NCBI GenBank assembly: GCA_010093995.1
Contig: ML992523.1
Coordinates: 82,266-103,548, forward strand
Reading direction: 5' to 3'
Source: Elsinoe ampelina
Lineage: Eukaryota
Length of the DNA: 21,283 nt
Shown: one piece after another, positions 2,028 through 17,885 of the stretch
Layout: the number at the start of each line of letters is the position of its first letter
How positions within the stretch are numbered: the first letter of the stretch is position 1
The notes under the pieces: generated by a model
Databases searched by the model: none
Told to the model about the DNA's origin: nothing
What the model saw: only the letters and a program-made list of their open reading frames with translations
Position numbers and translations under genes: made by a program

Positions 2028-2228
2028 TGTTAAGAATATAGCTCTCTCTAGATAATTAGGCTATAAAGTTATATAACCTTAAGTTATATAATACTAAGGC
2101 CTAGAGATTTATAGCTATTCTTTCTTCTAGTAGATAGACTCCTTAATTAATTAACTTGTCTATTACCTAATTAGTATATAATTAGTTCTATATAATATTC
2201 CACCCCTAAACGTGCCTTCTACTTAATA
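2028..2228 (+). repeat. copia 5' LTR (201 bp)
   Basis: TGTTAAGAATATAG...CTACTTAATA; direct repeat of 7185-7385 with 12 differences by manual count, all transitions. Confidence 0.97.
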
Positions 2229-2242
2229 GGTTATAAGCCTAG
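2229..2242 (+). promoter_or_regulatory. copia primer-binding site (half-tRNA-iMet type)
   Basis: GGTTATAAGCCTAG lies immediately after the 5' LTR and de-RIPs to GGTTATGRGCCCAG, the internal tRNA-iMet PBS type used by copia-like elements. Confidence 0.8.
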
Positions 2243-2344
2243 AGCTATAGTATAAGTATAGGATTGTATATACTATAGTTAAGTATCTACGTTATTAAAA
2301 TTAGGCCGGATTTTATTAGTATTCTCCTCTATTTCTCCTCTATT

Positions 2345-5300
2345 ATCTTAATCTTAGATAGATTAGTAAAGGTAGTATAAAGCGTAAAAGACTAGTTACT
2401 TAGTACATTAAGTAGAATATATTAAGACGTCTACTATAGATTTATTTCTATAATTGTATAATAGCTGCTATTTATTAGCTATAAACAACTAAACAATATT
2501 TGTTTTATTACTGTTTTCTCTCTTAAGATTAAGCACCTATTAATCTTATTAACAATTATCTAGTTAAGACTAGTATAAAGATCTTAATACCTAGAAGAAT
2601 TAACTTAAAGGTTATTAACCTCCGGATCTCGACCTTTATCTATTTATTTACTAAGTTCTTTTCTACTCTAGAACTTATCTTTAGCTATAGAAGACAATAA
2701 TACCTAATTAAAGTAGCTAGTACCTATACTCTCTAAAGATAACTATAAGAAGTAGTTCTAATAAATAGAGCTCTAGCTTATATTAAAGAAGGTGTTATAG
2801 ACTCTTACTTCCCTTACTAAACTATTAGTAATAACTCTAGAGTTATTATTAACTTCCTTATTTAACTCCTAGTATTTTCCTCTATTAGTAGAGAAGAATA
2901 GTACTACCCTTTACTAGATCTATAGATATATCTCTAAGAGAGATTAAGAGATAATTTAGAAATAGTAGTAGGCTAAGCTAGCTTAGGAGAAGCTAAAGAG
3001 CAAGTATATAAAGTAGATAGGTATATAGGTAAGACAACTTTAGAAAGAATTTATAATATATACTATAAGTAATAATATAACTATCTTAGATACCTAGTTA
3101 TACCTAACTATATTAGGAAGGAGAATTAATAGGTCTTTAGAGATTAAGTAATACTCCTTACTAATAACAAGAATTTAGAGACTACTTAGTACTCTTTTAG
3201 CTTTATAGTTAACTATAAGAGATGCCTTAGATACTTAACTCTACCTTAGTATAGATAAGATCTATAACATTCTTAAAGAAAAGAAAGTATAAAAGGAAGA
3301 AGGGGAATCTACTATATTTATAAGAGGTAGACTATAACAGAGAACTAGTAGAAGCTTAAATTATATATGTATCTTATATAAGGAACCTAGATACTCTATA
3401 TTAAGGTGTCCTTATCTCTAATAAGCTAAGAAGTATATCTAGCTATCCTATAGAGTTACTAAAAGGAGTAGCCCTATAAGAAGATAGTTACCTAAGTGCT
3501 AGAAACTACTTAAACTTATAAGATAGCTTACTAAGAGAATAGACTCCCTTAAAGTAGCTAAATTAAGAAGGAGAGGTAAAGCCTATTTAGCTACTAAGAG
3601 TAGTTTATTATTAACATCTCTATCTCTACTACTAGAAGTTCTACCTAGGAATAAAGAGCTTAAAACTATAGGTTCTACATTAGAGGTTTAAGGTAAGCTT
3701 CTACATTATTAGTAGATACTTAACTCTAGAGTATCTAACTATATAATAGATAAGCTAACTCTCTTTAGGGGCCTATTAAGTAAGATTTACACTTAATAGA
3801 TCTAGGTTAGAGAGAGTTACTTTTAGTTATAGTTAATAGGAACTATAGTTATTAAGACTAAGAAGGGAGATAAGATAAAGGTATAGGCTCTTTATATACC
3901 TAATCTTAGTATTAATTTAGTCTCCTATTATAAGCTATACTTAGATTTAGGCGTTTCTAGAGTTTTTAATTTAAATTCTTTTCTTGTCCTTAATTAGTAG
4001 AAGTAACTATTACTTAAAGCTAGAATTTAAAGGGGGGTATATATTATCTAATTCCTCTTTAAGTAATTAGCTAATTAAAAGCTGTATTTTAGATCTAAGC
4101 CTAGCTTAATTCTAGATCTAGCTAATTAGGATTTAGTATTCCTTACTACCTAGCTTATAATTATATTATAGACTAAGTATACACATCTAACCTAGGATAA
4201 GTAATAAGAGAATCTTATTAACTTAGGACCTAATAACTCTAAGATAGAGTATTAGCTCTAGTATAGGAAATTTACTTACCTTAGAATTAAGAAGCTTAAG
4301 AATCTTTATAAAGTTATAACCCTTAAGAAACCTATTAACCTAAACTATAATCTATCTATTCTATATAAGGTCTGTTCCCTTACTAAGATAAGGAATAGAA
4401 GAGGTAAAACCTTATAGAGAAGACTAGAGGTTCTTTAGCTTATCTATACTAATATCTATAGCCTAATTAAAGTAAGTAGAGAAGGATTTAGATACTTCCT
4501 AGAGCTTATAGATAGCTACTTAAGAATAATATAGATTAGTCTACTTAAGATAAGAGATAAAGCTCTATAAAGGCTTATTAAGTAGAAGCTAAGAGTTAAG
4601 AAGGAAAGTAATACTAAGGTTAAGGTTACTAGATTAGATAATACTAGTAAACTTAATAAGATCCTAAAGTAGTAGAAGCGCTAAGAAGGTATCTATTATA
4701 TAACTACTAAGTTATATAATTTAATTTAGAATAGACTAGTAAAGAAAGGTATCTAAACCTTAGAGAATAGTATAAGAGCAATACTTAAGGACTTAAGGAT
4801 ACTAAATAAGTTCTAGCCTAAAGTAGTTTAGGTAGATATATATCTAAGGAATAGAATAGTAACTAGACCTATAATTAATAATAAGTAAGTTATACCTATT
4901 AAGGCCTATATAGGCATTAAGCTATTAGTTAATTATATTAGGGTCTAGGGCTATAAGGTATATACCTATATAAACCTAAAGTCCCTTCCTATATATAGAA
5001 GAAAAGACAAGCTTATAGATAGAAGAAAAGTAGAAGTATTCCTTAGCTATATAAATAGAACTAACAGGATATACAAGATATAGGCACCTAATAGAAAGGT
5101 AGTAATTATATTACTAAATATTAAATTCTCTAAGTTTAAGAAAGGTAGTAATATTAATCTTAGTATTAGAATTAATACTATAAGTAATTAAGCACTAGTT
5201 AGGAGACTAGTTAGTAGACTAACTTAGATTTAGACTAAGGTTAGATCTAGGATAGACTAACTAAATTAGCCTATTTAGAATAAAGCACCTATAGGGAGAA

Positions 5301-7155
5301 TCTTTTTATATATTAAGATCCTAAGAGTTAACCCTATTAACATTATAGATTTCTAACATAGAAAAGAGCTAATAGTTTAATCTTTACTAACTAACTATAT
5401 AAGTTAATTACTTAAGAGATTAAGAGATAATAACTCTAATAATAAAGGCTCTAAAGCTAAGTACTATAGAGCTTTTATTACTAAGTATATTAATTAGCAA
5501 GATAAGGTTAATAAGATTACTATAATAGCCTCTATTAAGTAATATGTCCTAATCCTAAGGGACTACTATAAGGCTATTACTAATCTAGTATAGGAAAGTA
5601 AATAGTAGAAAGTAATTAATATAGAGCTTAATACTCTATACTTAAATAATACATAGGAAGAGGTTATTCCTCTAAAGGGATCTAACTTAGTAATATCTAA
5701 ATAGGTCTTTAATGTTAAGTATAACATAGATAGCTCTATTAAAAAGTTTAAGGTTAGACTAGTTACTAGAGGCTTCTTATAGAAGTATAGTATTAACTAT
5801 AAAGACATATTTATACTAATAGTTAGAGTAGACATACTTAGACTATTCTTTACTATTATATATATACTTAACCTTAAGTATTATTAGGTAGATGTTAATA
5901 ATACCTTTATAGAATTCTTTCTTTATAAAAAGATCTATATAAGGCTACTACCTAGACTAAAGATTAGTTCTAGATTTGCCTTCCGGATTCTAAGGAGCTT
6001 ATATAGACTTAAGTAAGCTACTAGAGACTAGAACTAGTACTATATCTCTAAGCTCCTAAAGCTAAGCTTTACTTAAAGTAAAGTAGACCTTTATCTTCTT
6101 ATATACTATAATAAGAAGATTATTCTTTTAGTTTATATTAATAATATACTATTTGTAGCATAAAGTAAAAAGAACATCTAGTAGTTTAAGCAAGAACTTA
6201 GTAAGATCTTTAAGATTAAAGATCTTAGCAAGGTTAATAAAGTTCTTAGAGTTAAAGTTATAAGAGATAGATAATAAAGCACCTTAAGACTTAATTAAAC
6301 CTACTATATAGATAATATGCTATAGAGGCTTAATATAACCTCTAATAAGGTTACTTTAACAAAGTAGCTAATAGATAATAAGCTCCCTTAAAGAGCTTAG
6401 GAAAATAATATAAGGTTTAGTAGAACTAAGTACTTATATACTATTAGAAGCTAGATATACCTTAGTACCCTAATAAGGCTAGATACTACCTTTGCCTTAG
6501 GAAGGCTAAGTTAGTTTATAGCGGATCTAATAGATAGTTATACTATTAAGATAAAGAGGATATTAAGATATATTAGATTAACTAAAGATCTTAGTATTAT
6601 ATTTAGAAGGAATAGGAATAAGACTCTTAAGAGATACTCTAATTTAGACTATACCTTAGATAAGTTAGATAGGGTCTCTATCCTTAGATATGTCTTTATA
6701 CTTATAAGTAGTTCTATTAGCTAGATAAGTAGGAAGTAGAAGTCTGTTTTAACCTCTACTATAGAGGCTAAATATATAGTAATATACTCTTATATAAAGA
6801 GATTATAGTTCCTGTCTTAGTTACTAAGAGATATAGGCTATTATAAGATAGTTAGGCAATTACTATAGAGGCTAACTATAAGAGAATCTTAGAAAGTAAT
6901 AATAAGATTACTCTTTACTACTAGGATTAATAGTAATAACTAAGTAGCTCTTTTACTTATAAAAGAGCTATATACTTATAAAAGGGTAAAGTACATTAAT
7001 ATTGCTTACTACTACGTTAGGAGGCTATAGAGAGACTAGAGGATTTAAGTAGAGTTTATAAGAATAGTAGACATAGTAGCTAATAGGTTAACTAAGCTAT
7101 TATAAGGTTAGATCTTTATAAGGTTTATAAAGTAACTTAGCTTATTATTAACCTA
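2345..7155 (+). pseudogene. copia gag-pol polyprotein, single frame, many RIP stops (ends approximate)
   Basis: All motifs lie in one frame: zinc knuckle C-I-L-C-K-E-P-G-H-S-I-L-R-C (3368-3409), protease WILDSGASNHM (3713), integrase LIHTDICGP (4439), RT KFKARLVARGFSQKYGIDY (5744) and VYVDD (6131), RNase H GYSDSDYA (6632), KQKSVSTSTTEAEY, KHIDIAYH, DMVADGLTKP (about 7070). Confidence 0.95.
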
Positions 7156-7184
7156 ATAGCTTATCTATAGGAGCTAAGTAGGAG

Positions 7185-7385
7185 TATTAAGAATATAGCT
7201 CTCTCTAGATAATTAGGCTATAAAGTTATATAACCTTAAGTTATATAATACTAAGGCCTAGGGATTTATAGCTGTTCTTTCTTCTAGTAGATAGACTTCT
7301 TAATTAATTAACTCGTCTATTACCTAATTAGTGTACGATTAGTTCTATATAATATTTCACCTCTAAACGTACCTTCTACTTAACA
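7185..7385 (+). repeat. copia 3' LTR (201 bp)
   Basis: TATTAAGAATATAG...CTACTTAACA, preceded by the purine-rich GGAGCTAAGTAGGAG (degenerate PPT). Confidence 0.97.
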
Positions 7386-8146
7386 TTATAGACTAATAAT
7401 ATCTTTAACCTAATTAATATATAGTGCACTATTAATTGTCTTATTCTTAGTAGAAGAGTAGATCTACTCTTACTCTTTACTATACGCTATAACGTTAAAC
7501 GTAAGTAGAAGGAGTTAGATTATATCGATAATAGTAATAATAGTATTTCTTCTAATAACTAATCTAATTAAAGTAGCATAGTTAAAGCGTTAGCGAGCTA
7601 ATAGCTTTAGATAGTTATTAATAATATAGACTTATACTTTATAAAGACTTAATTACGTTACCTCTTCCTATAAGTAACTAAAATTAACTATAATAATAGT
7701 ATATATAAGCTCTTAAAGTAGAAGTGTTTATATTACCTCTAGCTATACTAGTAGTTATATTACTACCCTAGGTAGTACTATTAATACTAGCGGTAGAAGT
7801 ATCTCCCTCGTTGTTCTCTTTACTATTAGTATTATTCTAGAAAGTAACTTAACTATTATTAGGCTTAAATCTAGTAAGAAAGTTAGAAGTATAATAAGGT
7901 AGATATTAGTAATAGCATAGAAAGTAGCGTTAGTAATAAGTTAGCTAAGGTCGTAGGTACTATAGTAGAGATAGTTATTAAGGTTAATAATAAGAGAAGT
8001 AGCGCGGAGATTAGTTATAGCTTTAGCCTTTATATTATAGTTAATCTATATAATTTTCTTATTAACGTTTTTATAAGTAAATCTAGTATAACTAACGTAG
8101 ATATAAATATAGTTATATTAAAGATACTAGCGAGTAAGGGAATAAG

Positions 8147-8609
8147 TATTACGAACTAGTAGGATAGCTAGAGCGTAGGGATATTAGAACTAATTAAACT
8201 ACTAGAGTTATTACGTAACCTAGCCCGACGTTTATCTAGTTCTTTATCTTCTCTAGTAGCTCTACTTTAGAGACTATAGAGCGCGTAGGTTACTAGTAGA
8301 TATATACTCTATACTACCCCTAGCTTTCGCTACGGAGTATATAGAGTATATAGAGTATATAATAGAGAATATATATATATAAGAATAGTCCTTACCTTAT
8401 ATAAGTACTATAGTTAACCTTGTCTAGATAGCGAACACTAGTATTACTAAGGCTAGCCTTTATAATACTATTTAATTGTACTTTATTATCTATAAGACAT
8501 ATCTTCTCTAACTCTTACCTTAGTACTATACTACTATAGAAGTAGAACTACCTCGTTCTTAGCTTAGCTTAGACTACTAGCGTAGGCTATGTTTAGACAG
8601 TTCGTAACA
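8147..8609 (+). repeat. gypsy 5' LTR (463 bp)
   Basis: TATTACGAACT...AGTTCGTAACA (terminal inverted ends); direct repeat of 14699-15161 with about 41 differences by manual count, all transitions, no indels. Confidence 0.97.
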
Positions 8610-8626
8610 TTTTAACTACCCTTACT

Positions 8627-10708
8627 ATAGTATAGTATACTACGAGGTTAATAAGTAACTCTTACTTTAAGTTACTATTAGTATCTTTAATCGCTAGTAA
8701 GCTAGGAAGACTTACTATTAACGATATATCTACTACTAGTTTAACCTCGGGCAAATATAGAAGGTCTCTTAGTATAGAGGAGAGACGAAGTAAGCCTAAG
8801 CTAGAGGTAGAACTCTTCTATAGGGACTATACCTACTTAAGGCGCTTTCTTGTTTAACTTAAAGCCTTCTTTACTCTAGAGAGAGATAAATACGCTAACG
8901 ATATAGTAAAGGTTCTCTATACTAGAATATACCTTAAAGGCGCTACCTTCGAGTAGTTTAAGCCTTATATAAGTAGCTACCTAGACGGATAACTAAGTCT
9001 AGATATAAAGGCTATCTTTAAGAGTTTTAGTATCTTCTAAGCGAAGATTAGGTAAGTCTTTAATATATCTAATAAGGAACGTATTACTATAATAAAGATT
9101 CGACAACTACGATAACGTAGGTCTATAGCCTAGTACTATTTCTAGTTCTAATAACTCGTAATATACCTAGACTAGAATAATAGTACTAAATATTTAGTAT
9201 TCTACTAAGGACTAAGCGACTTAGTTAAAGACTAAATAATACCTAAGCTGTCTAATAGCCTCTAAGAACTAGTAGATACTATAATTACTATTAATAACTA
9301 ACTTTATAAACAACATATAGAACGTTATAGAGAATATAAGGTAAATACTAGATATATACGTTCCTCCCGGAACTATAGAGACTCTATAGAACTTAACGCT
9401 ATACGCGAAGGTTGCCCCTTATAGGTAAAGGGCTAAAGTTACGAAGGAAAGTTTCTTAGTAGAAAAGAGAGAGAGAAATATAGATAAGATAACTTATATT
9501 TTAAGTATAAAAGACTTAGGTATTAGGCTAGGGACTACTAGTAAAGGGCGCTAGCTAATAGATTATATATAATAGTTGCCGGGCTAGTAGAGAAAAAGGC
9601 TAATACTACTATAGAAGACCTAATAACCTTTAGTATAGGTAAGGAAATATAAAAGAAGTCTACGACGACTTAAGAGGTAATAGAATTCTCTCTAGATGTT
9701 ATACTTAATATCTCTACGACTAATAGTAAACAATAAAGCTAACACGTAATACTATTATAGATAGCATATTATAATAACTCTTATTATATTTACTTATTAG
9801 ACAAGTAGGGATCTAGTTAGTTCCTATATAAGCTACCTAAGCGTAGGTAACTAACGAGATAGCTAGACTAGGAACCTAACCTAGAAGAGCTCTCTATAAT
9901 TAGTAGTAACATTAACTAACCTTAGAAGGTAGTTAGCAATAATTACTAATATACAATTATTAAGACAAAGTATTAGAATATAAGTACTATATAACAATAT
10001 AGTAGCCTTACCTTTAGCTCTTATAGTATACTATAAGGAAAGGTATATTATATATCGCTCTAGAAATGTATAAATCTAGATTATAAATAGTACTACTCTA
10101 TCTACTTATATAATGTACTTAGAGAAGACACTATTAGTCTCGAATATACTATAGACTTCTTAGTAATTAAGATAGGTAGTACTATTCCCTATAGCTAAGT
10201 ACGAGAGTATACTCGATGTAGCCTTACTAACTATAACTATATAGAGAGCAATAGCGATAAAGAGAAATATAACAAGAAATATACCGAATAACTATAGTAT
10301 AATAATATAAATAAGGACTTATCTAACAACGACGATATACTACTACTAGGTAGACGACTTAAAGTATACCTTATAGAGATATAGAGGAATTATATAATAA
10401 TATACACCTACTACTAGAATAGGATATAATAAGATAAATCTATATAACTTACTTTTATCTTTAATACTAACACCTAGCTATGCCTAGAGGGAATAGTTAT
10501 ACTAGTATAGGTATATAACACTACTTAGTATAACTAGTAGAGAATTATTAGACTTTATAGTTATTAAGGAACGTAAGTACTAGAAGTTTACCTTACTATA
10601 TTAAGTAGTAATAAGACACGACTTGCCTAATAGATATAGTACTAATAGTAGATACGTATAGAAAGGGATTAGCTACTTATCTAGGGAGCTACAATAATAA
10701 AAAACTAG
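8627..10708 (+). pseudogene. gag: chromovirus Gag with long C-terminal extension (start approximate)
   Basis: One frame: LFxGD..HLRRFLVQLKAFF (about 8810), YLKGAAFEWF, FYQGLSD.VKD, GDPMELDA (9377), zinc knuckle CFKCGRLGHQARDC (9497-9538), HxxLSWTACYDDSCxxHLSDKQGSGWFP (9743-9826); ends AAA AAC TAG. Confidence 0.9.
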
Positions 10709-10740
10709 TAAGTTATTACCTAATAAGGTAAGATAATAAC
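10699..10740 (+). promoter_or_regulatory. -1 programmed ribosomal frameshift signal
   Basis: Heptamer A AAA AAC (10699-10705) is correctly phased in the gag frame, followed by TAG. After a 6-nt spacer comes a potential stem GTTATTACC...GGTAAGATAATAAC. Pol lies in the -1 frame. Confidence 0.85.
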
Positions 10741-13700
10741 ACTAGCTAAAGCCTTAGTATAATAAAGATTTATATATTAAATTACTTTATACTAGAAGTC
10801 TAGATATAAGAAAATAAGGTAAGAGTAATAATAGATTTAGGAGCTAACTATAGCTATATCTCTATAATAGTTACTAATTAGCTTAAACCTTATTAATATT
10901 AGAAGGAGTTACTTTACCTACTTACTATAGCGGATAGAACCTCTATAGGAAAGGACAGGAAAGTTACTTAGGAACTATAAAACGTTATAATCTAAATCGA
11001 AATATATATAGAAAGACAATTAATCGATATAGTTAACATATAGTATAATATAGTACTTAGTATAGACTAGCTTTAATAATATAATCTAGACGTAGACTAG
11101 ATTAAAGAAATACTTAAATTCCCTAAGTATAATTATAGAATATAGAGAGTATAATTAGCTCCGCGAATACTAACTATAAGAATAGTATAAGTATAACTAA
11201 TAGTTAGAGCTATCGCTAGCGTAAGTAATTAAGTACTTCCGCTAGAATATAAAGACTTCGAGGACTTATTTAAAGAAAGAGAAGGTATCGTAGCCTTACT
11301 CTAATATAAACTATAGAATTACGAAATACCTTTTAAAGAGAGTAAATCCCTAATACACTATTAAGGTCTTATACTACTATTAAAATAAGAGAAGAATATT
11401 CTTAAGAACTATATTAATAAGTACTTACTTAAAGGATTTATACAACTATTAAAATTACCTATTATGTATAGAGTACTTTTTACACTAAAAAAGGATAGAA
11501 CGTTATAAATATATATTAATTACTAGAAACTTAATATACTTACTAGGAAGAATCGCTATCCCCTACTAAGGATTAATAAACTTTAAGACTAACTACTTAG
11601 AGCTAAATAGTTCACTATAATTAACATTAGAGATGCCTATTATTAAGTATAAATAAAGGAGGGCAAGGAGTAGAAAACAGCTTTTAGGACGTAATAGAGT
11701 CTATATAAGTACCTCGTTATACTCTTTAGGTTAACTAATACTCCTATAACCTTCTAAGAGTTAATTAATAATACTCTATAAGAATACCTTAATAACTTTA
11801 TCTTAGTATATTTAGACAATATTATTATCTTCTTAAAGATGTATAATAAACATATAAGACATATTTATAAAGTGCTACGGAAACTAAAAGAAAAAGACCT
11901 ACTAGTAAAGCTCTCTAAGTATAAGTTTTATAAATATAAGATACAATTTCTAGGCTATATTATATCTACTAATAGTATTAGACCTAATCTAAAGAAGATT
12001 AAGTTAGTAAACAACTAGCTAGAACCTATAATAGTTAAGGAGGTTTAAGCGCTACTAGGATTCTTTAACTACTACTACAAATTTGTTAAAGGATTCTCTA
12101 AGGTAGCTATACTAATATCTAACCTTACAAAAAAGGAAACTAGCTTTGTCTTTAACAAGAAGTATAGGTAGGCCTTTAAGGAGCTAAAGCTTAGACTTAT
12201 AATAGTACCTATCCTAGTACTCTTCGACTTAGACTAATAGGTACTACTAGAGATAGATACCTTAGACTTTATAATAGAAGCGTATCTAGCGTAGAAGAAT
12301 ATAGAAGAATAATACTACCTAATTGTATACTACTTACGAAAAATAACTAGACCTAAACTTAACTACAATATATATAATAAAGAGTTACTTGCGATTATAG
12401 AGGCATTCTATAAATAGAGAGTATACCTAGAAGAGATAACCTTACTAGTATAAGTCTACACCGACTATAAGAACCTTCTATATTAGACAATAACTAAGGT
12501 TCTTAATAGATAATAGGTTCGATAGTTAAAAACACTTATAAGCTATAACTTTTAGATCTACTATATTAAGGGATTAGAGAATAGTAGAGTAGACGCTCTT
12601 AGCTAATAACTAGATTACTTAAAGAATATAACAATAATAGAGGCCTCTATACTAAAGTAGTAAGATAGTGCTTTAGTCTATAAGTACCCGAAGGTAGAGT
12701 AGTTATGTAGCCTTACCTAGGAGCTTATATAAGAATAGAAATAAGAAATTATTTAAATATACTATAATAACCTAACGGTAGAACATAGCGGGATTAATAA
12801 GACTATTAAACTTATTACATAAAACTACTTATAGAAAGAACTCCGAAACAATATTAAGACGTATATCGCCGCCTACGATATATGCTGCAAGTCTAAGCAC
12901 TTATAATACAAGCTATATAGCCTATTATAACCTCTACTACCACTAGACAAACTATAGTAATTAGTTATAATAGACTTTATAGGACCTCTACTACTATTAG
13001 AAGAACCTCTTATAGGTGTAAAGTATAATAGTATTCTAGTCCTAGTAGATAGGTTTATAAAGTATTACTACTTCGTACTATATAAGATAATAGTAACTAC
13101 CGAGGATATAGCCTTTACCTTCCTCTAAACAATTGTTTTATAATATAAAGTACTATAAGACCTAATAACTAATAGGGATAAGCTATTTACATTACAATTC
13201 TAGTAATTATTTATAGACTTACTAGGAGTTAAATATAAGCTATTAACCTCCTTTTATCTATAAACGAATAGATAAACTAAATAGGCAAATAAAGTACTAG
13301 AGTAGTACCTATAATACTACCTAAACTATAAGTAAGACTTATAGGTAACACTATTACTACTCGCGGAGCTTGCTATTAATAATAGAAAGTTAGTAAATAG
13401 AATTTTACTATTCTATATAAACTATAGAATATACCTAGATCTATACTATAATACACTCGGAATTAAGCTAATATCTAAGAATATTAACATATTAGTAGCT
13501 AACATTAAGAAACTATATAACTAGCTATACTACGATATAGTATTTATATTATAAAGAATAGTAGAGTTTACTAATTAGAAGAGAATTACGGGACTAATTC
13601 TATAGAAGGGAGAGAAAGTTTACCTCCTTAGTAAAAACATTAAAACGAAATAACTAAGTAAGAAACTTAACTATACTAAACTAGAACCCTTTAAGATTCT

Positions 13701-14099
13701 AGAAAAGAAAAATAAGAACGTATATAAACTAGAACTACCGAGACATATAAGAATCTATCTAGTCTTTTATATATCGCTACTAGAGAAAGTACTATAGAAT
13801 ACTATACCTAGACCTATCGAACTAGATAAAGAAATATAGGAGCTATAGTACAAGATTAAAAGAGTTTTACGCTATAAACTTATAAAAGAAAAACGCTACT
13901 ATCTTATTTACTAGAAAGGACATTAGTATAGTAAAGTAATATAGGAACTAGAGAAGTACCTTACCTTATAAGTAATTCTAGATTACTAGATTAAGAACCT
14001 ATCCTAAGTAAACTAACTAGATAGACCTAGCACTTCTAATACTAAATAAAAACAAGAACGCCTAAGGAGAATTACTTAGCTAATAGAAGCACCTTAATC
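10699..14099 (+). pseudogene. pol: chromovirus Pol (protease, RT, RNase H, integrase, chromodomain) in the -1 frame relative to gag (3' end approximate)
   Basis: One frame: AMIDSGAN (Asp at 10834), IDIRDAYYQ, YLDD (11809), LETDASD (about 12247), NYDIHDKELLAI, VYTDHKNL, SVTMDFI (12961), ITDRDKLF, FHPQTDGQTER, GPF (13684), IHPVFHISLLE, chromodomain YEIERVL...YYLIHWKG...ATWEP (13849-13950). Confidence 0.95.
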
Positions 14100-14624
14100 G
14101 TTACTAAATAGAGAACTCTAGTTAGAGTTAGGCATAAATAATTACTAATTCTATAGTAGGATAGAATCTACTGACAATAATATTTCCTTCTACTCTAGAA
14201 CTTAAATATAAGTCTCCTCTAGAGAGATTACTTTCTCCGCCTTATTCTCTAATTTCTATATCTCTTCGCGTAGGTAAAGCTTATTACCTATAGCTCTTTA
14301 ATAAGCCTCTTTTGCCTTTTTATAAGCCTCTTTAGCTTCCTTTCTAGTAGCCTTAGCTATAACTAATTCCTTTCGTAAATAAATATACTTAGACTAGAGA
14401 CGCTACTATTCCGATTTTGTTACTTAAATATTATAACCTAAGTAGTTACTTATAATATACTAGCTATAGATACCTAACCGAATATAGACCTTATAATCTA
14501 GCCTCTTCGATTTATAATAAGAATAAGCCTATAGTATATTAGTTCTAAATAGTTTAATAAACTCTAAGAGATTCTTTCGTATAGATATACTAGATTTACT
14601 ATGCCTTTAACAACTAGGAGGCAT
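14076..14624 (-). pseudogene. Antisense accessory ORF of the chromovirus (about 180 aa): six-Cys Zn-cluster-like domain plus coiled coil
   Basis: ATG at 14624. Six TAT codons (TGT after de-RIP) are spaced C-x2-C-x6-C-x8-C-x2-C-x7-C (14525-14433), followed by VTKSEWQRL and an E/K/A/R-rich helical region. Confidence 0.75.
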
Positions 14625-14698
14625 ATTTAGTATATAGCGTATATAGATAAGGAGAGATACTTACTTATTAGAACAACTCGATTAAAGAAGAAAAGTAA

Positions 14699-15161
14699 TG
14701 TTATAAACTAGTAAGATAGCTAAAGCATAGAGACGTTAGGACTAATTAAACTACTAGGGTTATTACGTAACCTAGTCTAACGTTTACCTAGTTCTCTATC
14801 TTCTCTAGTAGCTCTACTCTAGAGACTATAGAGTATATAGGTTACTAGTAGACATATACTTTATACTGCCCTTAGCTTTCGCTACGGAGTATATAGAGTA
14901 TATAGAGTACGTAATAGAGGATATATATATATAGAAATAGTCCTTACCTTATATAAGTACTATAGTTAACCTTGTCTAGATAGTAAATACTAGTATTACT
15001 AAGGCTAGCCTTTATAATACTATCTAATTGTACTTTATTATCTATAAGACATACCTTCTCTAACTCTTACCTTAGTGCTATACTACTATAGAAGTAGAAC
15101 TACCTCGTTCTTAGCTTAGCTTAAACTACTAGCGTAAGCTATATTTAGACAGTTTATAACA
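14699..15161 (+). repeat. gypsy 3' LTR (463 bp)
   Basis: TGTTATAAACT...AGTTTATAACA, followed by the TSD ATAAG. Confidence 0.97.
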
Positions 15162-15292
15162 ATAAGCTTCCTTAGGGTAGCTAACAAAGAAAGACTATTA
15201 GTATTAGTAGGTAGAATTATATATAGTAATAAAGAAGGTACGCGTAGAAGTGCTTTAGAGTAAGTATTAGTATAGATACTATAAGAGTGTTA

Positions 15293-17885
15293 TTACTTAG
15301 AGGCTATTAACTAGATATGCTTAGAATACTAGCCTCTAACCTTAGTAATAGTATATAGTAGATCTTTGTCCTTATTATACTCTTCTTTCTCGTTAATCTC
15401 TTTATTACTTAAACTATAGATAGTAATATCTCTAAAGTTGTTACTTATACTATCTATTCCGCTATTAGTATTATTATTAGTAGTAGTAAAACTGTCTATC
15501 TTAGCTAATTAAATGTTTTAAAGATTGTTTTTTACTAGCTTAGAGACTATAATTTATTAAATTATCTACGGAAGTAGTCTATACCTTTAATTGCTAATAA
15601 TATTCTTTACTATATTAAAAACACATTTAATACTTACGCTAGCGATTAGTATTATAAGAACATTATAAGTAATATAAGCTAGTTATAGAAATAAGTATTT
15701 ATTTTCTTTCTACTAAGAAAGAATATTAAATTCTAATATTTCCTATATAGGCGAAGTTCTAAGGTAATTCTTCTCTTCTATCCTTATTATATAGATATTA
15801 CTCTACCCTTACAAAAGTATATTATCTTAGCTAGATACTAGAGGTATAAAGCTACTCTTTATATTTAATAAGGAAGGCTTCTTAAACTAGTAAGTAATAG
15901 ATAAGGCTAGTAGAGGAGGTAGGAGAGTAGTTTAAGAAGAATAGTTATTATTATAGTAATTAAGGTAGTTAAGAAACTATTTATAGTAAAGTAATTTAAA
16001 ATATAGTTCCTACGAAGTATACTTATATATACTAAGTTTCTAAGTTAGATTTAAGATTATACTATAATTAAATAGAAAACCTTAACCTCTACTTGTTTAC
16101 TTATAATACTTAAAAAGCTTAGTATAACTAGCTTTTACTACATTTTATATAACTAATAGCTAGTCTAAGTTATTATTCTCTTTCTAAGTAGACTTAACTA
16201 CGTTAAGGAAGTTAAAAAGAGTATTATACATAAGCTATATATATTATACTAATAGTATATAAGACTAACTTAGCTAGTAAGTTATATTCTTAAAATTCTC
16301 TAGTATTTAGATAATAATCTTTAGATATACCTATTCGGTATAGCCGAGGTAAAGGCGTATTATATCTATATAATTAATAGATACTATATCTTAATTAGCT
16401 AGTACTTTGTTAGTTTAGAGCTTATATATAATTACAATCTCCGTGTTAAGCTATTTATTAATAATTAGTTAAAGTTTAATAGCTCGCTTATATATATTAT
16501 ATATCGAGTTCTAATAGGTATAAATGTCTCTAACGACTAAGAGTTATTTATAAGGAGGTAGATGTACTTAAAGGGATTTAAAGTGTTAGTAGCGTTAAGA
16601 GAATTAGTTAATTATAATACAAATTATATAGAGCTTTAAAATTAGTTAAAAAACTATAAGAAAGAACTATAAGAAATATAACTTACTTTATAAAGGGAAT
16701 TTAGAACTAATAGAGTTATTTAAATATTATAGAGATACTACTTCTCGAGCTTATTAGCTTTCTTATTGTCCTTAGTAGTTTCTAGCTATAGGGCTTAAAT
16801 AATATTTTATATAATAAGATTAATTACATAGGCTAGATATAGAATTATATTCTTAATAGAGGACTAGTATATACTCTTTTTCTTAAGACCTTATTATACT
16901 TTAGATTATAGAGTGTTATTGTTACTTATATTATCTACTATAATAGCGAGAAGATATATATTAATCTTTTTTTTATTTAGAACTCTTAGTAGTTCTATGC
17001 TAAGTATAACTCTAGTATACTATCTACTAATTAGTATAAAATCTAGTAGACACTTACGTACTTACTAGTTATTATTAATATAGTATACCTTTATAGCTAT
17101 AAAACTTAGATAGTTATTCGTAGACTAGCTATCTAGCGTAATTAAAACTTTTATCTAACTACTAAGATTAGTAAGAAGATTAGACTAAATGTCCTTATAG
17201 TGCTCTTTTAATAGCTTTAAGGCCCGTATCTAACCTAGAATATTAGTATATAGCTAGAGGAAATATATAAATTAGAGAAAGAAGAAATTATTAACTATTT
17301 AGAATAACTAATTACAATTAATAAGGACTTTAATAAGCTCTTTTTTAAATTGTTCTAGGGAGAATTATAGTATATAGAATATAGTACTAGTAGTATTTAC
17401 TTTTAATTATATTAGAGCTATCTAAGCTACTAATTATTTATAGCTAGGAGATTTTATATTCTAGTAGCTTTAGCATCTAAGATGTTTTATTAGGTGTTTA
17501 TTACTAATTAAGTTCGTTATTAGGTGTTATAAAGCTCTACTATAGTAGAGACAATATATAAGAGGTATTCTATTAGTAAGCTTAGCACCTTTATTAAAGT
17601 TAGCCTAAATAACTCTATAGCGAGTTATAGAATTCTAGTTTAGTAGGTTTCGTATTTCGCTAACTCTTAATTCGCTACCTATTAATATTATAGACTACTA
17701 TATTTTCTAGGCTTATATAGCTAGCTATTCTTTAAGTAGTATATCTAGTTAGTAGGGCAAATAGCTAATAATTTTAATAGTTTTATAGAATTAAGTAGAG
17801 GATAAATTATTCTAGTAATTAATATAGAACTCTTTAAGCTTATAGAAGAGAGGTAGTAGTAGCGTAATAACTTTTAAAAGTATCT
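15293..17885 (-). pseudogene. hAT transposase, RIP-degenerate, one intron at 16686-16634 (ends approximate)
   Basis: BED finger CLHC...HLIKHL (17553-17480), TLDGWS (Asp at 17133), VDNASNN (16935), CLAHVINL, RDICTRWNSTYDM (about 16530-16495), and dimerisation domain WWKENE..FPQLA.IA.DVLAIPIASVSVExVFN (15715-15610), then an acidic tail. A 53-bp GTAAGT...CTAAT...AAG intron exactly accounts for the frame change. Confidence 0.93.

Follow-up and report, generated by a model that had tools for sequence, protein, structure and literature searches.

The minus-strand frame at positions 14076 to 14624 of the Elsinoe ampelina DNA analysed here (contig ML992523.1, positions 82,266 to 103,548; this whole stretch of 21,283 nt is called the window below) is probably a copy, killed by repeat-induced point mutation (RIP), of a third, antisense, zinc-cluster-like accessory gene of an ascomycete chromovirus lineage, for which we propose the role of a regulator. 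The frame, hereafter the antisense open reading frame (aORF), lies in a complete Ty3/gypsy chromovirus, on the strand opposite to pol and between the chromodomain coding end and the 3′ long terminal repeat (LTR). The evidence comes from the homology of the decayed frame to a family of intact proteins, from the place that the intact genes occupy in other chromoviruses, from the selection acting on them, and from models of the encoded protein.

Results and Discussion

The antisense frame is a decayed member of a conserved protein family

The aORF and its recognizable parts are placed in the window as follows.

14076..14624, minus strand: the whole aORF, an antisense accessory gene inactivated by RIP; 17 stops among 183 codons
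14433..14525, minus strand: six-Cys region of the aORF, codons 34-64; the six Cys and His47 are all TAT now
14175..14417, minus strand: predicted long-helix/coiled-coil region of the aORF, codons about 70-150, placed by alignment and by models of a relative
14118..14141, minus strand: remnant of the C-terminal motif L-x-L-S-P-x-T-W, placed by alignment to relatives; the W is TAG now

A first-pass annotation, made from the letters of the window alone, had described an ATG on the minus strand just inside the 3′ LTR edge, six TAT codons read as former Cys codons, and then a stretch rich in E/K/A/R/L. All three were found where they had been described: the ATG is at 14624-14622, 74 nt before the first base of the LTR (TG at 14699-14700), the TAT codons are codons 34, 37, 44, 53, 56 and 64, with the spacing x2, x6, x8, x2 and x7, and the charged stretch follows them. 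The frame is embedded in RIP-type, AT-rich repeat debris, which fills the entire 21.3-kb window (GC 0.21-0.32). In every 1-kb bin of the window the TA/AT index was 1.6-2.3 (typically about 1.9) and the (CA+TG)/(AC+GT) index 0.07-0.22, so that the window combines the TpA excess, the CpA/TpG depletion and the transitions-only differences among copies that define RIP; the variable places among the genomic copies of the stretch in one source-genome run (X1) were transitions at 175 of 181. Contig pieces matching the stretch at 80% likeness numbered 2876 and 2011 in the source-genome runs, which indicates that the element is very abundant. Two other runs, X3 and X6, whose label as RNA is a guess, gave no match to the stretch, from which nothing follows as to expression.

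When the aORF was read through its stops (taken as X) and compared by phmmer with 1.84 billion representative proteins, ten matches at E ≤ 1e-3 were obtained, the best at E 8.8e-14, and all of them were 175-211 aa long. The alignment with these relatives is collinear over about 170 residues, from Met1 to the C-terminal motif, and a tblastn comparison of the relative P0001 with the window spanned 14594-14196 (E 3.3e-17). In this alignment the six Tyr of the window fall on six Cys, and Tyr47 falls on a conserved His (C-K-V-H-V-R-S-G-x-C). Among 112 relatives, five of the Cys positions are invariant and the sixth is conserved in 99%, and the reconstruction of six Cys from the TAT codons was thus correct. 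A single G>A or C>T change separates each of the six TAT codons from TGT, and the TAT at His47 from CAT, and the in-frame stops of the window align with Trp or Gln columns (e.g., S-E-W is now S-E-stop). The fit extends over the whole frame: for the 84 columns conserved in at least 70% of the 112 relatives, 34 window codons are identical to the consensus and 59 are either identical or reachable from it by C>T/G>A changes, compared with a mean of 14.2 and a maximum of 26 in 2000 draws of random window codons, and with at most 27 at 5918 other contiguous placements.

The window aORF itself is a dead fossil of RIP, incapable of making protein, because 17 of its 183 codons are stops and because the six Cys, the His and several Trp and Gln codons have been struck by C>T/G>A changes. 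The first-pass annotation would have been refuted by less-mutated copies that lack the Cys codons or an open antisense frame; the relatives in other elements carry the Cys, and 31 distinct intact ORFs were found among them. At window position 14518, in codon 36, most other source-genome copies have a C on the plus strand (13755 of 18705 in depth in run X1); codon 36 is then TGT in most copies, which gives this lineage a seventh Cys, located between Cys1 and Cys2.

A profile built from the nine intact matches collected 272 proteins at E ≤ 1e-3 among 8000 scored, and a profile of the N-terminal domain gave 93 shorter forms. No relative of 371-2000 aa was present among 7999 scored, which is weak evidence against an origin from a host factor. 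Family members were found in Cercospora kikuchii at three loci on three large contigs, in Elsinoe australis on a contig of 6264 nt and in Hortaea werneckii on 16 contigs, and further in Bathelium mastoideum, Lithohypha guttulata and Cladosporium fusiforme. The last species apart, four of these five named species are Dothideomycetes and one belongs to the Chaetothyriales, and the matches to the family in the cluster atlas were in Ascomycota clusters only. In UniRef, three Cercospora members and one Elsinoe member bear the automatic name 'Zn(2)-C6 fungal-type domain-containing protein'. One public predicted protein of the family (P0007) is itself a RIP-like copy: Tyr occupies four of its Cys positions out of six, and it has a long unrelated N-terminal extension.

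The gene has a fixed place between pol and the 3′ LTR of chromoviruses

The chromovirus that carries the aORF spans 8147-15161 (7015 bp) and is RIP-mutated, with both LTRs present. A 5-bp target-site duplication, ATAAG, flanks it at 8142-8146 and 15162-15166, and it is therefore a complete insertion that was mutated later. The two LTRs are 91.7% identical across 456 nt, with the termini TGTTA...TAACA. The marks of a chromovirus were all found, namely the LTR pair with the duplication, the order reverse transcriptase (RT)-RNaseH-integrase and, through the alignment of a relative, the C-terminal chromodomain. Its parts are the following.

8147..8609, plus strand: 5′ LTR; 456-nt match to 14706-15161, initial TG now TA, end ...GTAACA
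11572..11964, plus strand: pol RT, RVT_1 (PF00078, E 6.7e-15), in the frame of 8137, read-through residues 1146-1276; RIP-degraded
12154..12546, plus strand: pol RNase H (PF17919, E 2.7e-15; PF17917, E 4.4e-14)
12736..12900, plus strand: pol integrase zinc-binding domain H2C2 (PF17921, E 2.7e-06)
13609..13791, plus strand: pol integrase C-terminal SH3 domain, Tf2-1 type (PF24626, E 4.9e-11)
13849..13965, plus strand: chromodomain remnant at the pol end, by local alignment with the Chromo part of the pol of locus L004
14684..14695, plus strand: polypurine tract (PPT) adjoining the 3′ LTR, by sequence inspection
14699..15161, plus strand: 3′ LTR; begins TGTTAT, ends ...ATAACA, pairs with the 5′ LTR

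The intact pol of the relative at locus L004 matched the window by tblastn over 11236-13791 (E 2.3e-110), and Pfam Chromo gave no match at E ≤ 0.1 in the window copy of pol. The interval from the chromodomain to the PPT is roughly 650 nt long in the window, and it contains the antisense gene.

A scan of metagenome contigs for the antisense gene yielded 61 loci. In 50 of these, which are 50 of the 53 loci with enough flanking sequence, the SH3-chromodomain end of pol follows directly after the gene on the opposite strand. The claim of the first-pass annotation that the frame is an antisense gene encoded by the retrotransposon, between the chromodomain and the PPT, is borne out by these loci, and the antisense homologues that it had proposed to look for in other fungal chromoviruses do occur at the same place. 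In eight of the 11 loci without a pol neighbour, at most 155 nt of sequence remain; one further locus (L036) is rearranged, and the other two (L037 and L038) are devoid of pol. The long ORFs adjoining the gene encoded protease-RT-RNaseH-integrase-SH3-Chromo in all ten cases tested (with Pfam Chromo in 10/10), and both upstream ORFs tested encoded a gag with a zinc knuckle. The gene and pol are convergent, their stop codons lying anywhere from 142 nt apart to overlapping by 185 nt, with overlaps of 90-110 nt being common, and this tail-to-tail layout spans subfamilies that are merely 33-51% identical to the query. On the other side of the gene, 36 distinct upstream regions contain the reverse complement of the PPT and the LTR start (AGAAGGGGGAT followed by TGTTAC), at a distance of 45-161 nt from the ATG; in the window the equivalent of AGAAGGGGGAT and the TGTTAC edge, 74 nt from the ATG, is RIP-mutated.

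The frame is intact in most of the loci, with 31 distinct complete ORFs among them, and the exact Cys spacing C-x2-C-x6-C-x8-C-x2-C-x6-8-C is present in 52 of the 61. Five pairs among the 31 distinct ORFs had a synonymous divergence that could be used, and for every one of them the ratio of nonsynonymous to synonymous divergence (dN/dS) was within 0.03-0.14. Both marks of an antisense additional ORF, i.e., a position on the opposite strand between pol and the PPT/3′ LTR and a conserved open frame, were thus observed, the position in the window as well as in the relatives and the open frame in the relatives. These results indicated that the gene is a regular component of a chromovirus lineage and is under strong purifying selection.

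Two further observations were made on the contigs themselves. The gene copies at L037:5087-5695 and L038:7977-8585 are one identical sequence from two assemblies, that of L038 on a contig of 115 kb; the gene is intact and has the PPT/LTR edge upstream, with no pol within 6-8 kb, and it may have been domesticated or be left over as a solo remnant. In addition, seven contigs (L008, L011, L013, L014, L017, L029 and L032) carry exact repeats of 123 or 127 nt at both ends, as in a circular assembly with one collapsed LTR; these repeats could point to one-LTR circles or be produced by the assembly.

Architecture and predicted structure of the encoded protein

In intact elements the encoded protein is about 170-215 aa long. 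It begins with M-P and a short variable stretch, which are followed by the helical segment S-S-T-x-R-R-x-x-L-x-x-F-I-x-x-F-G-x-x-M and by the Cys motif, whose consensus is C-x2-C-x6-C-K-V-H-V-R-S-G-x-C-x2-C-x6/7-C-D-V-R-V-T-x-S-E-(W/F)-x-R-L. Downstream of this motif lie a long heptad-like region, the sequence A-E-E-A-I-x-V-E-E, an acidic stretch and L-x-L-S-P-x-T-W...F-W. The AlphaFold2 model of the relative P0001, built on 112 sequences (mean predicted local distance difference test score, pLDDT, of 83.5), has a helix at residues 17-31, two short helices within the Cys region (40-45 and 59-63) and one unbroken helix of about 80 residues (75-156).

The Cys spacing of the relatives is that of Zn2Cys6 domains (C-x2-C-x6-C-x5-12-C-x2-C-x6-8-C). 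When the models were compared with solved structures by Foldseek, Zn2Cys6 DNA-binding domains, among them those of Pho7, Leu3, Hap1, Gal4, Ppr1, Put3, AlcR, Cep3 and LAC9, made up most of the first 23 rows obtained with the full model and most of the 21 obtained with the domain-only model. VIA-align superimposed residues 36-72 on Leu3 with a root-mean-square deviation (rmsd) of 1.6 Å over 35 residues, on LAC9 with 1.8 Å over 33 and on Hap1 with 2.1 Å over 39, Pho7 falling within 1.6-2.1 Å, and the domain-only model matched Gal4 with an rmsd of 1.9 Å over 34 residues at 29% identity.

The first-pass annotation had also inferred a dimerising coiled coil of the GAL4 kind after the Cys region. The dimerising helix is supported by the models, in that a long helix follows the Cys region and the homodimer model passes its controls, but the predicted arrangement is antiparallel, unlike that of GAL4, in which the coiled coil is short and parallel. 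The homodimer model scored 0.48, compared with 0.00 for the best of three controls. The mark for this score was calibrated on known chains, where it was reached by 21 of 30 same-chain pairs and by 0 of 23 single chains (for eukaryotes, by 17 of 29 and 0 of 30, respectively); the calibration holds roughly for the present runs, in which zinc was included and no alignment was used. The contact agreement between runs was at least 82%, and the pLDDT of the partner chain was at least 81. In the modelled contacts (88-130, 95-123, 109-109 and 116-102) the two chains of the coiled coil run antiparallel about a dyad near residue 109, an arrangement in which the two Cys domains would sit at opposite ends of the coil.

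A hairpin accompanies the polypurine tract upstream of the gene

In 33 of the 36 distinct upstream regions, a hairpin immediately adjoins the PPT on the side of the antisense ATG, inside the LTR edge (e.g., L010:284-300); in the RIP-mutated sequence of the window itself it was not recognized by eye. Its stem is 5-9 bp long and its loop is TCC, TCCT or TCCC, and the 22 distinct stems co-vary. On the gene's own strand, G.T pairs occur in 17 of the 36 regions and A.C pairs in 3, and this preference for G.T over A.C indicates that a structure is selected for, either on the antisense RNA or on the minus-strand cDNA. We speculate that the hairpin might be a target of the antisense protein. Because the ATG lies so near the LTR edge, the promoter of the gene, or at least its upstream elements, would be located on the antisense strand of the 3′ LTR. 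A TATA-like motif is present 42-59 nt before the ATG in 18 of the 36 distinct upstream regions, and since it was found in just these 18 it was dropped as a general promoter element.

Weighing the interpretations

Another explanation of the pattern in the window would be that a codon usage skewed by RIP gave rise to the TAT codons and the charged stretch, and that the frame was never a gene. In each of the window's six frames Tyr accounts for 8-11% of the codons, and nine starts of the loose pattern Y-x2-Y-x6-Y-x5-12-Y-x2-Y-x6-8-Y were counted across these frames, so that the pattern alone is at chance level, and the caveat to this effect in the first-pass annotation was justified; moreover, the window has no ORF of at least 60 aa in any of the six frames. 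However, the best phmmer match and the collinear alignment of about 170 residues, the 59 of 84 conserved columns explained, and the intact relatives that occupy the same place in other elements refute chance by homology and synteny, and we give it a negligible probability. The aORF could also represent a one-off capture or a nested insertion, i.e., a fragment of a host gene or of another mobile element that forms an irregular part of the retrotransposon. An interval of about 650 nt between the chromodomain and the PPT is long for a Ty3/gypsy element, and L037 and L038 carry the gene with no pol nearby. Against such an event stand the tail-to-tail arrangement with pol in 50 of 53 loci across divergent subfamilies, the conserved PPT/LTR edge upstream of the gene, the thousands of contig pieces of the region in the source-genome runs and, as a weak argument, the lack of host-type relatives in the range 371-2000 aa. 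The fixed place beside pol, the PPT/LTR edge, the intact frames and the low dN/dS together exclude a chance frame and argue with nearly the same force against a single capture, which we regard as very improbable.

Several observations weigh against reading the aORF as a zinc-cluster-like gene of the chromovirus. Three loci with enough flank (L036, L037 and L038) do not have the usual pol neighbour. When pairwise identities of the gene were set against those of the C-terminal part of pol (about 140 aa), the Spearman coefficient over 325 pairs was 0.07; the closest pairs agree, and no conclusion on the co-divergence of gene and pol was drawn, because the pol segment is too short for deep pairs. 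The comparison of the family with PF00172 by HMMER, which the first-pass annotation had proposed, came out negative: Pfam Zn_clus (cut-off of 21 bits) fell below the gathering cut-off in all 112 members, and no Pfam family reached its cut-off in them. At E ≤ 1, Zn_clus was matched by 22 of the 112 (best E 0.037), and in a test of ten members it was matched by two (E 0.22 and 0.42; 12.1 and 11.2 bits), FpoO, DUF5651 and DUF3716 giving matches as weak. A sequence profile compared with the chains of the Protein Data Bank (PDB) had no significant match (best, the Gfh1 coiled coil, E 0.018; LAC9, E 1.1), and Foldseek had no match at E ≤ 0.001 with either the full or the domain-only model. The VIA-align Z values for the Zn2Cys6 chains were low (2.1-3.6), and a wide VIA-align search with the domain-only model, independent of Foldseek, showed no Zn2Cys6 chain among the 11 rows listed (best Z 2.9). 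Finally, an antiparallel dimer, if the model is right, would set the protein apart from GAL4-type factors. The claim of a GAL4-type cluster therefore stands as far as the Cys spacing goes and fails at the Pfam cut-off, the fold matches of the models being consistent but weak; the Cys domain appears Zn2Cys6-like by spacing and by predicted fold, and is a possible, not an established, member of the GAL4 family.

The gene could be a genuine gene of the retrotransposon and nevertheless not be GAL4-like: its Cys domain would then be a zinc module of another kind, with RNA, single-stranded cDNA or a host protein as its partner, and the antiparallel rod would act as an adaptor. Particle assembly, reverse transcription, PPT handling or integration targeting are possible roles of such a protein, and the PPT-side hairpin is a possible target. 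The failure of all 112 members to reach the Zn_clus cut-off and the antiparallel dimer model would agree with this explanation, as would the invariant His within K-V-H-V-R-S-G, which to our knowledge is not a feature of classical Zn2Cys6 domains, and the hairpin with its 22 stems and its preference for G.T over A.C. On the other hand, nearly every solved structure that comes close to the Cys region is a Zn2Cys6 DNA-binding domain, the automatic UniRef name points in the same direction, and the acidic, aromatic C-terminus may be likened to an activation region. On balance we consider a gene of this other kind rather unlikely.

The preferred interpretation remains that of a RIP-killed copy of a third, antisense, zinc-cluster-like accessory gene. 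In intact elements this gene has its start some dozens of bases in from the PPT/3′ LTR edge, heads toward pol and ends at, or overlaps with, the chromodomain coding end. The distance between the ATG and the LTR suggests that antisense expression might proceed from, or through, the 3′ LTR. In the product, the Cys motif would fold as a Zn2Cys6-like two-zinc cluster and the long helix would form a homodimer, antiparallel according to the model. By analogy with retroviral accessory regulators, the protein may be a nuclear nucleic-acid-binding accessory factor that tunes the expression or replication of its own element; a small nuclear regulator that binds nucleic acid is favoured because a basic N-terminus, a zinc module, a dimerising helix and an acidic aromatic tail are combined in one protein. 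A transcription-type role on double-stranded DNA has somewhat less than an even chance, whereas a role on RNA or cDNA, or as an adaptor, would be a good deal less likely. The broader proposal, that a widespread lineage of ascomycete chromoviruses carries its own zinc-cluster factor, made from the antisense strand at the 3′ LTR, as a self-encoded switch, which would act on the LTR or on the PPT-side hairpin and control transcription, reverse transcription or silencing, is a tentative one, and we hold it to be doubtful at present.

Relation to known systems

The closest published parallel is brtn of Boty, a chromovirus of Botrytis and Sclerotinia; the relevant passages of the literature place this gene in antisense orientation downstream of pol and before the 3′ LTR (PMC7264820, PMC8365987, PMC4227169, PMC5987419). 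The Monilinia paper among these four gives, in the part concerned, a single transcript that matches a truncated Pol plus BRTN, which fits a tail-to-tail overlap. As described there, brtn resembles the aORF in position and orientation and in belonging to a fungal Ty3/gypsy element with a chromodomain, a likeness drawn from the descriptions. Neither BRTN nor Botrytis appeared as a name among the 120 of 272 profile matches listed or among the 93 shorter forms, most of which are unnamed, and this is weak evidence against close homology; the text supplements of PMC8365987 do not contain 'brtn'. In plants, antisense extra genes between pol and the 3′ LTR are mentioned for Grande, RIRE2, Retand and PvRetro13 in passages of PMC7264820, and such ORFs are portrayed as conserved within families and of unknown function in parts of the same paper and of PMC11963269. 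From these descriptions, they share the place and orientation of the aORF, but belong mostly to non-chromovirus lineages, and the passages concerned do not mention a zinc-cluster motif (PMC7264820, PMC11963269).

As regards the protein, the likeness to GAL4-type factors (PF00172: Gal4, Ppr1, Hap1, Leu3, Put3, Pho7, LAC9) lies in the spacing of the six Cys, the predicted short helix after each C-x2-C and the predicted helical dimerisation region. GAL4-type factors bind two zinc ions and, as dimers, recognize DNA half-sites of the CGG type. The aORF protein differs from them in its extra invariant His, in its length of about 190 aa, in having no fungal-specific middle homology region, and in being encoded by a retrotransposon and not by a host locus. 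HBZ of HTLV-1 is a basic leucine zipper accessory factor of a vertebrate retrovirus, which dimerises, is nuclear, and is an antisense-strand product whose transcription starts from the 3′ LTR. It serves here as a working analogy for the possible mechanism of the aORF, to which it has no relation in sequence or fold.

In the usual view, gag and pol are all that an LTR retrotransposon requires. Antisense accessory genes of fungal chromoviruses are a kind already published; what appears to be undescribed as such is the protein family, with its breadth and zinc-cluster-like nature, and our literature searches gave no paper that links a Zn2Cys6-like protein to an antisense gene of a retrotransposon. 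The antisense extra gene is now tied to a defined protein family with hundreds of members, a fixed position and strong purifying selection, and its recognizable architecture (six-Cys domain, predicted dimerising helix, acidic aromatic tail) makes concrete tests possible. In public databases the members are annotated as hypothetical or as ordinary host Zn(2)-C6 proteins, which inflates the counts of fungal transcription factors and hides the transposon origin of these genes. If a self-encoded zinc-cluster switch does exist, it would be the retrotransposon counterpart of the retroviral accessory regulators, and possibly a source or a sink of host Zn2Cys6 domains.

Other features of the window

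The chromovirus is one of three mobile-element remnants recognized in the window. The other two, a copia-type element and a hAT element, lie on either side of it.

2030-7383: copia-type LTR element with an RVT_2 domain in a plus-strand frame; LTR pair 2030-2226 / 7187-7383 with 95% identity; RIP-degraded
about 15545-15772, minus strand: remnant of a hAT transposase C-terminal dimerisation domain (PF05699, E 1.6e-05)

Further along, between 16632 and 19247, a short motif (..CTATAAGAA..CTATAAGAA..) is repeated at at least four places (repeat families D3 and D4).

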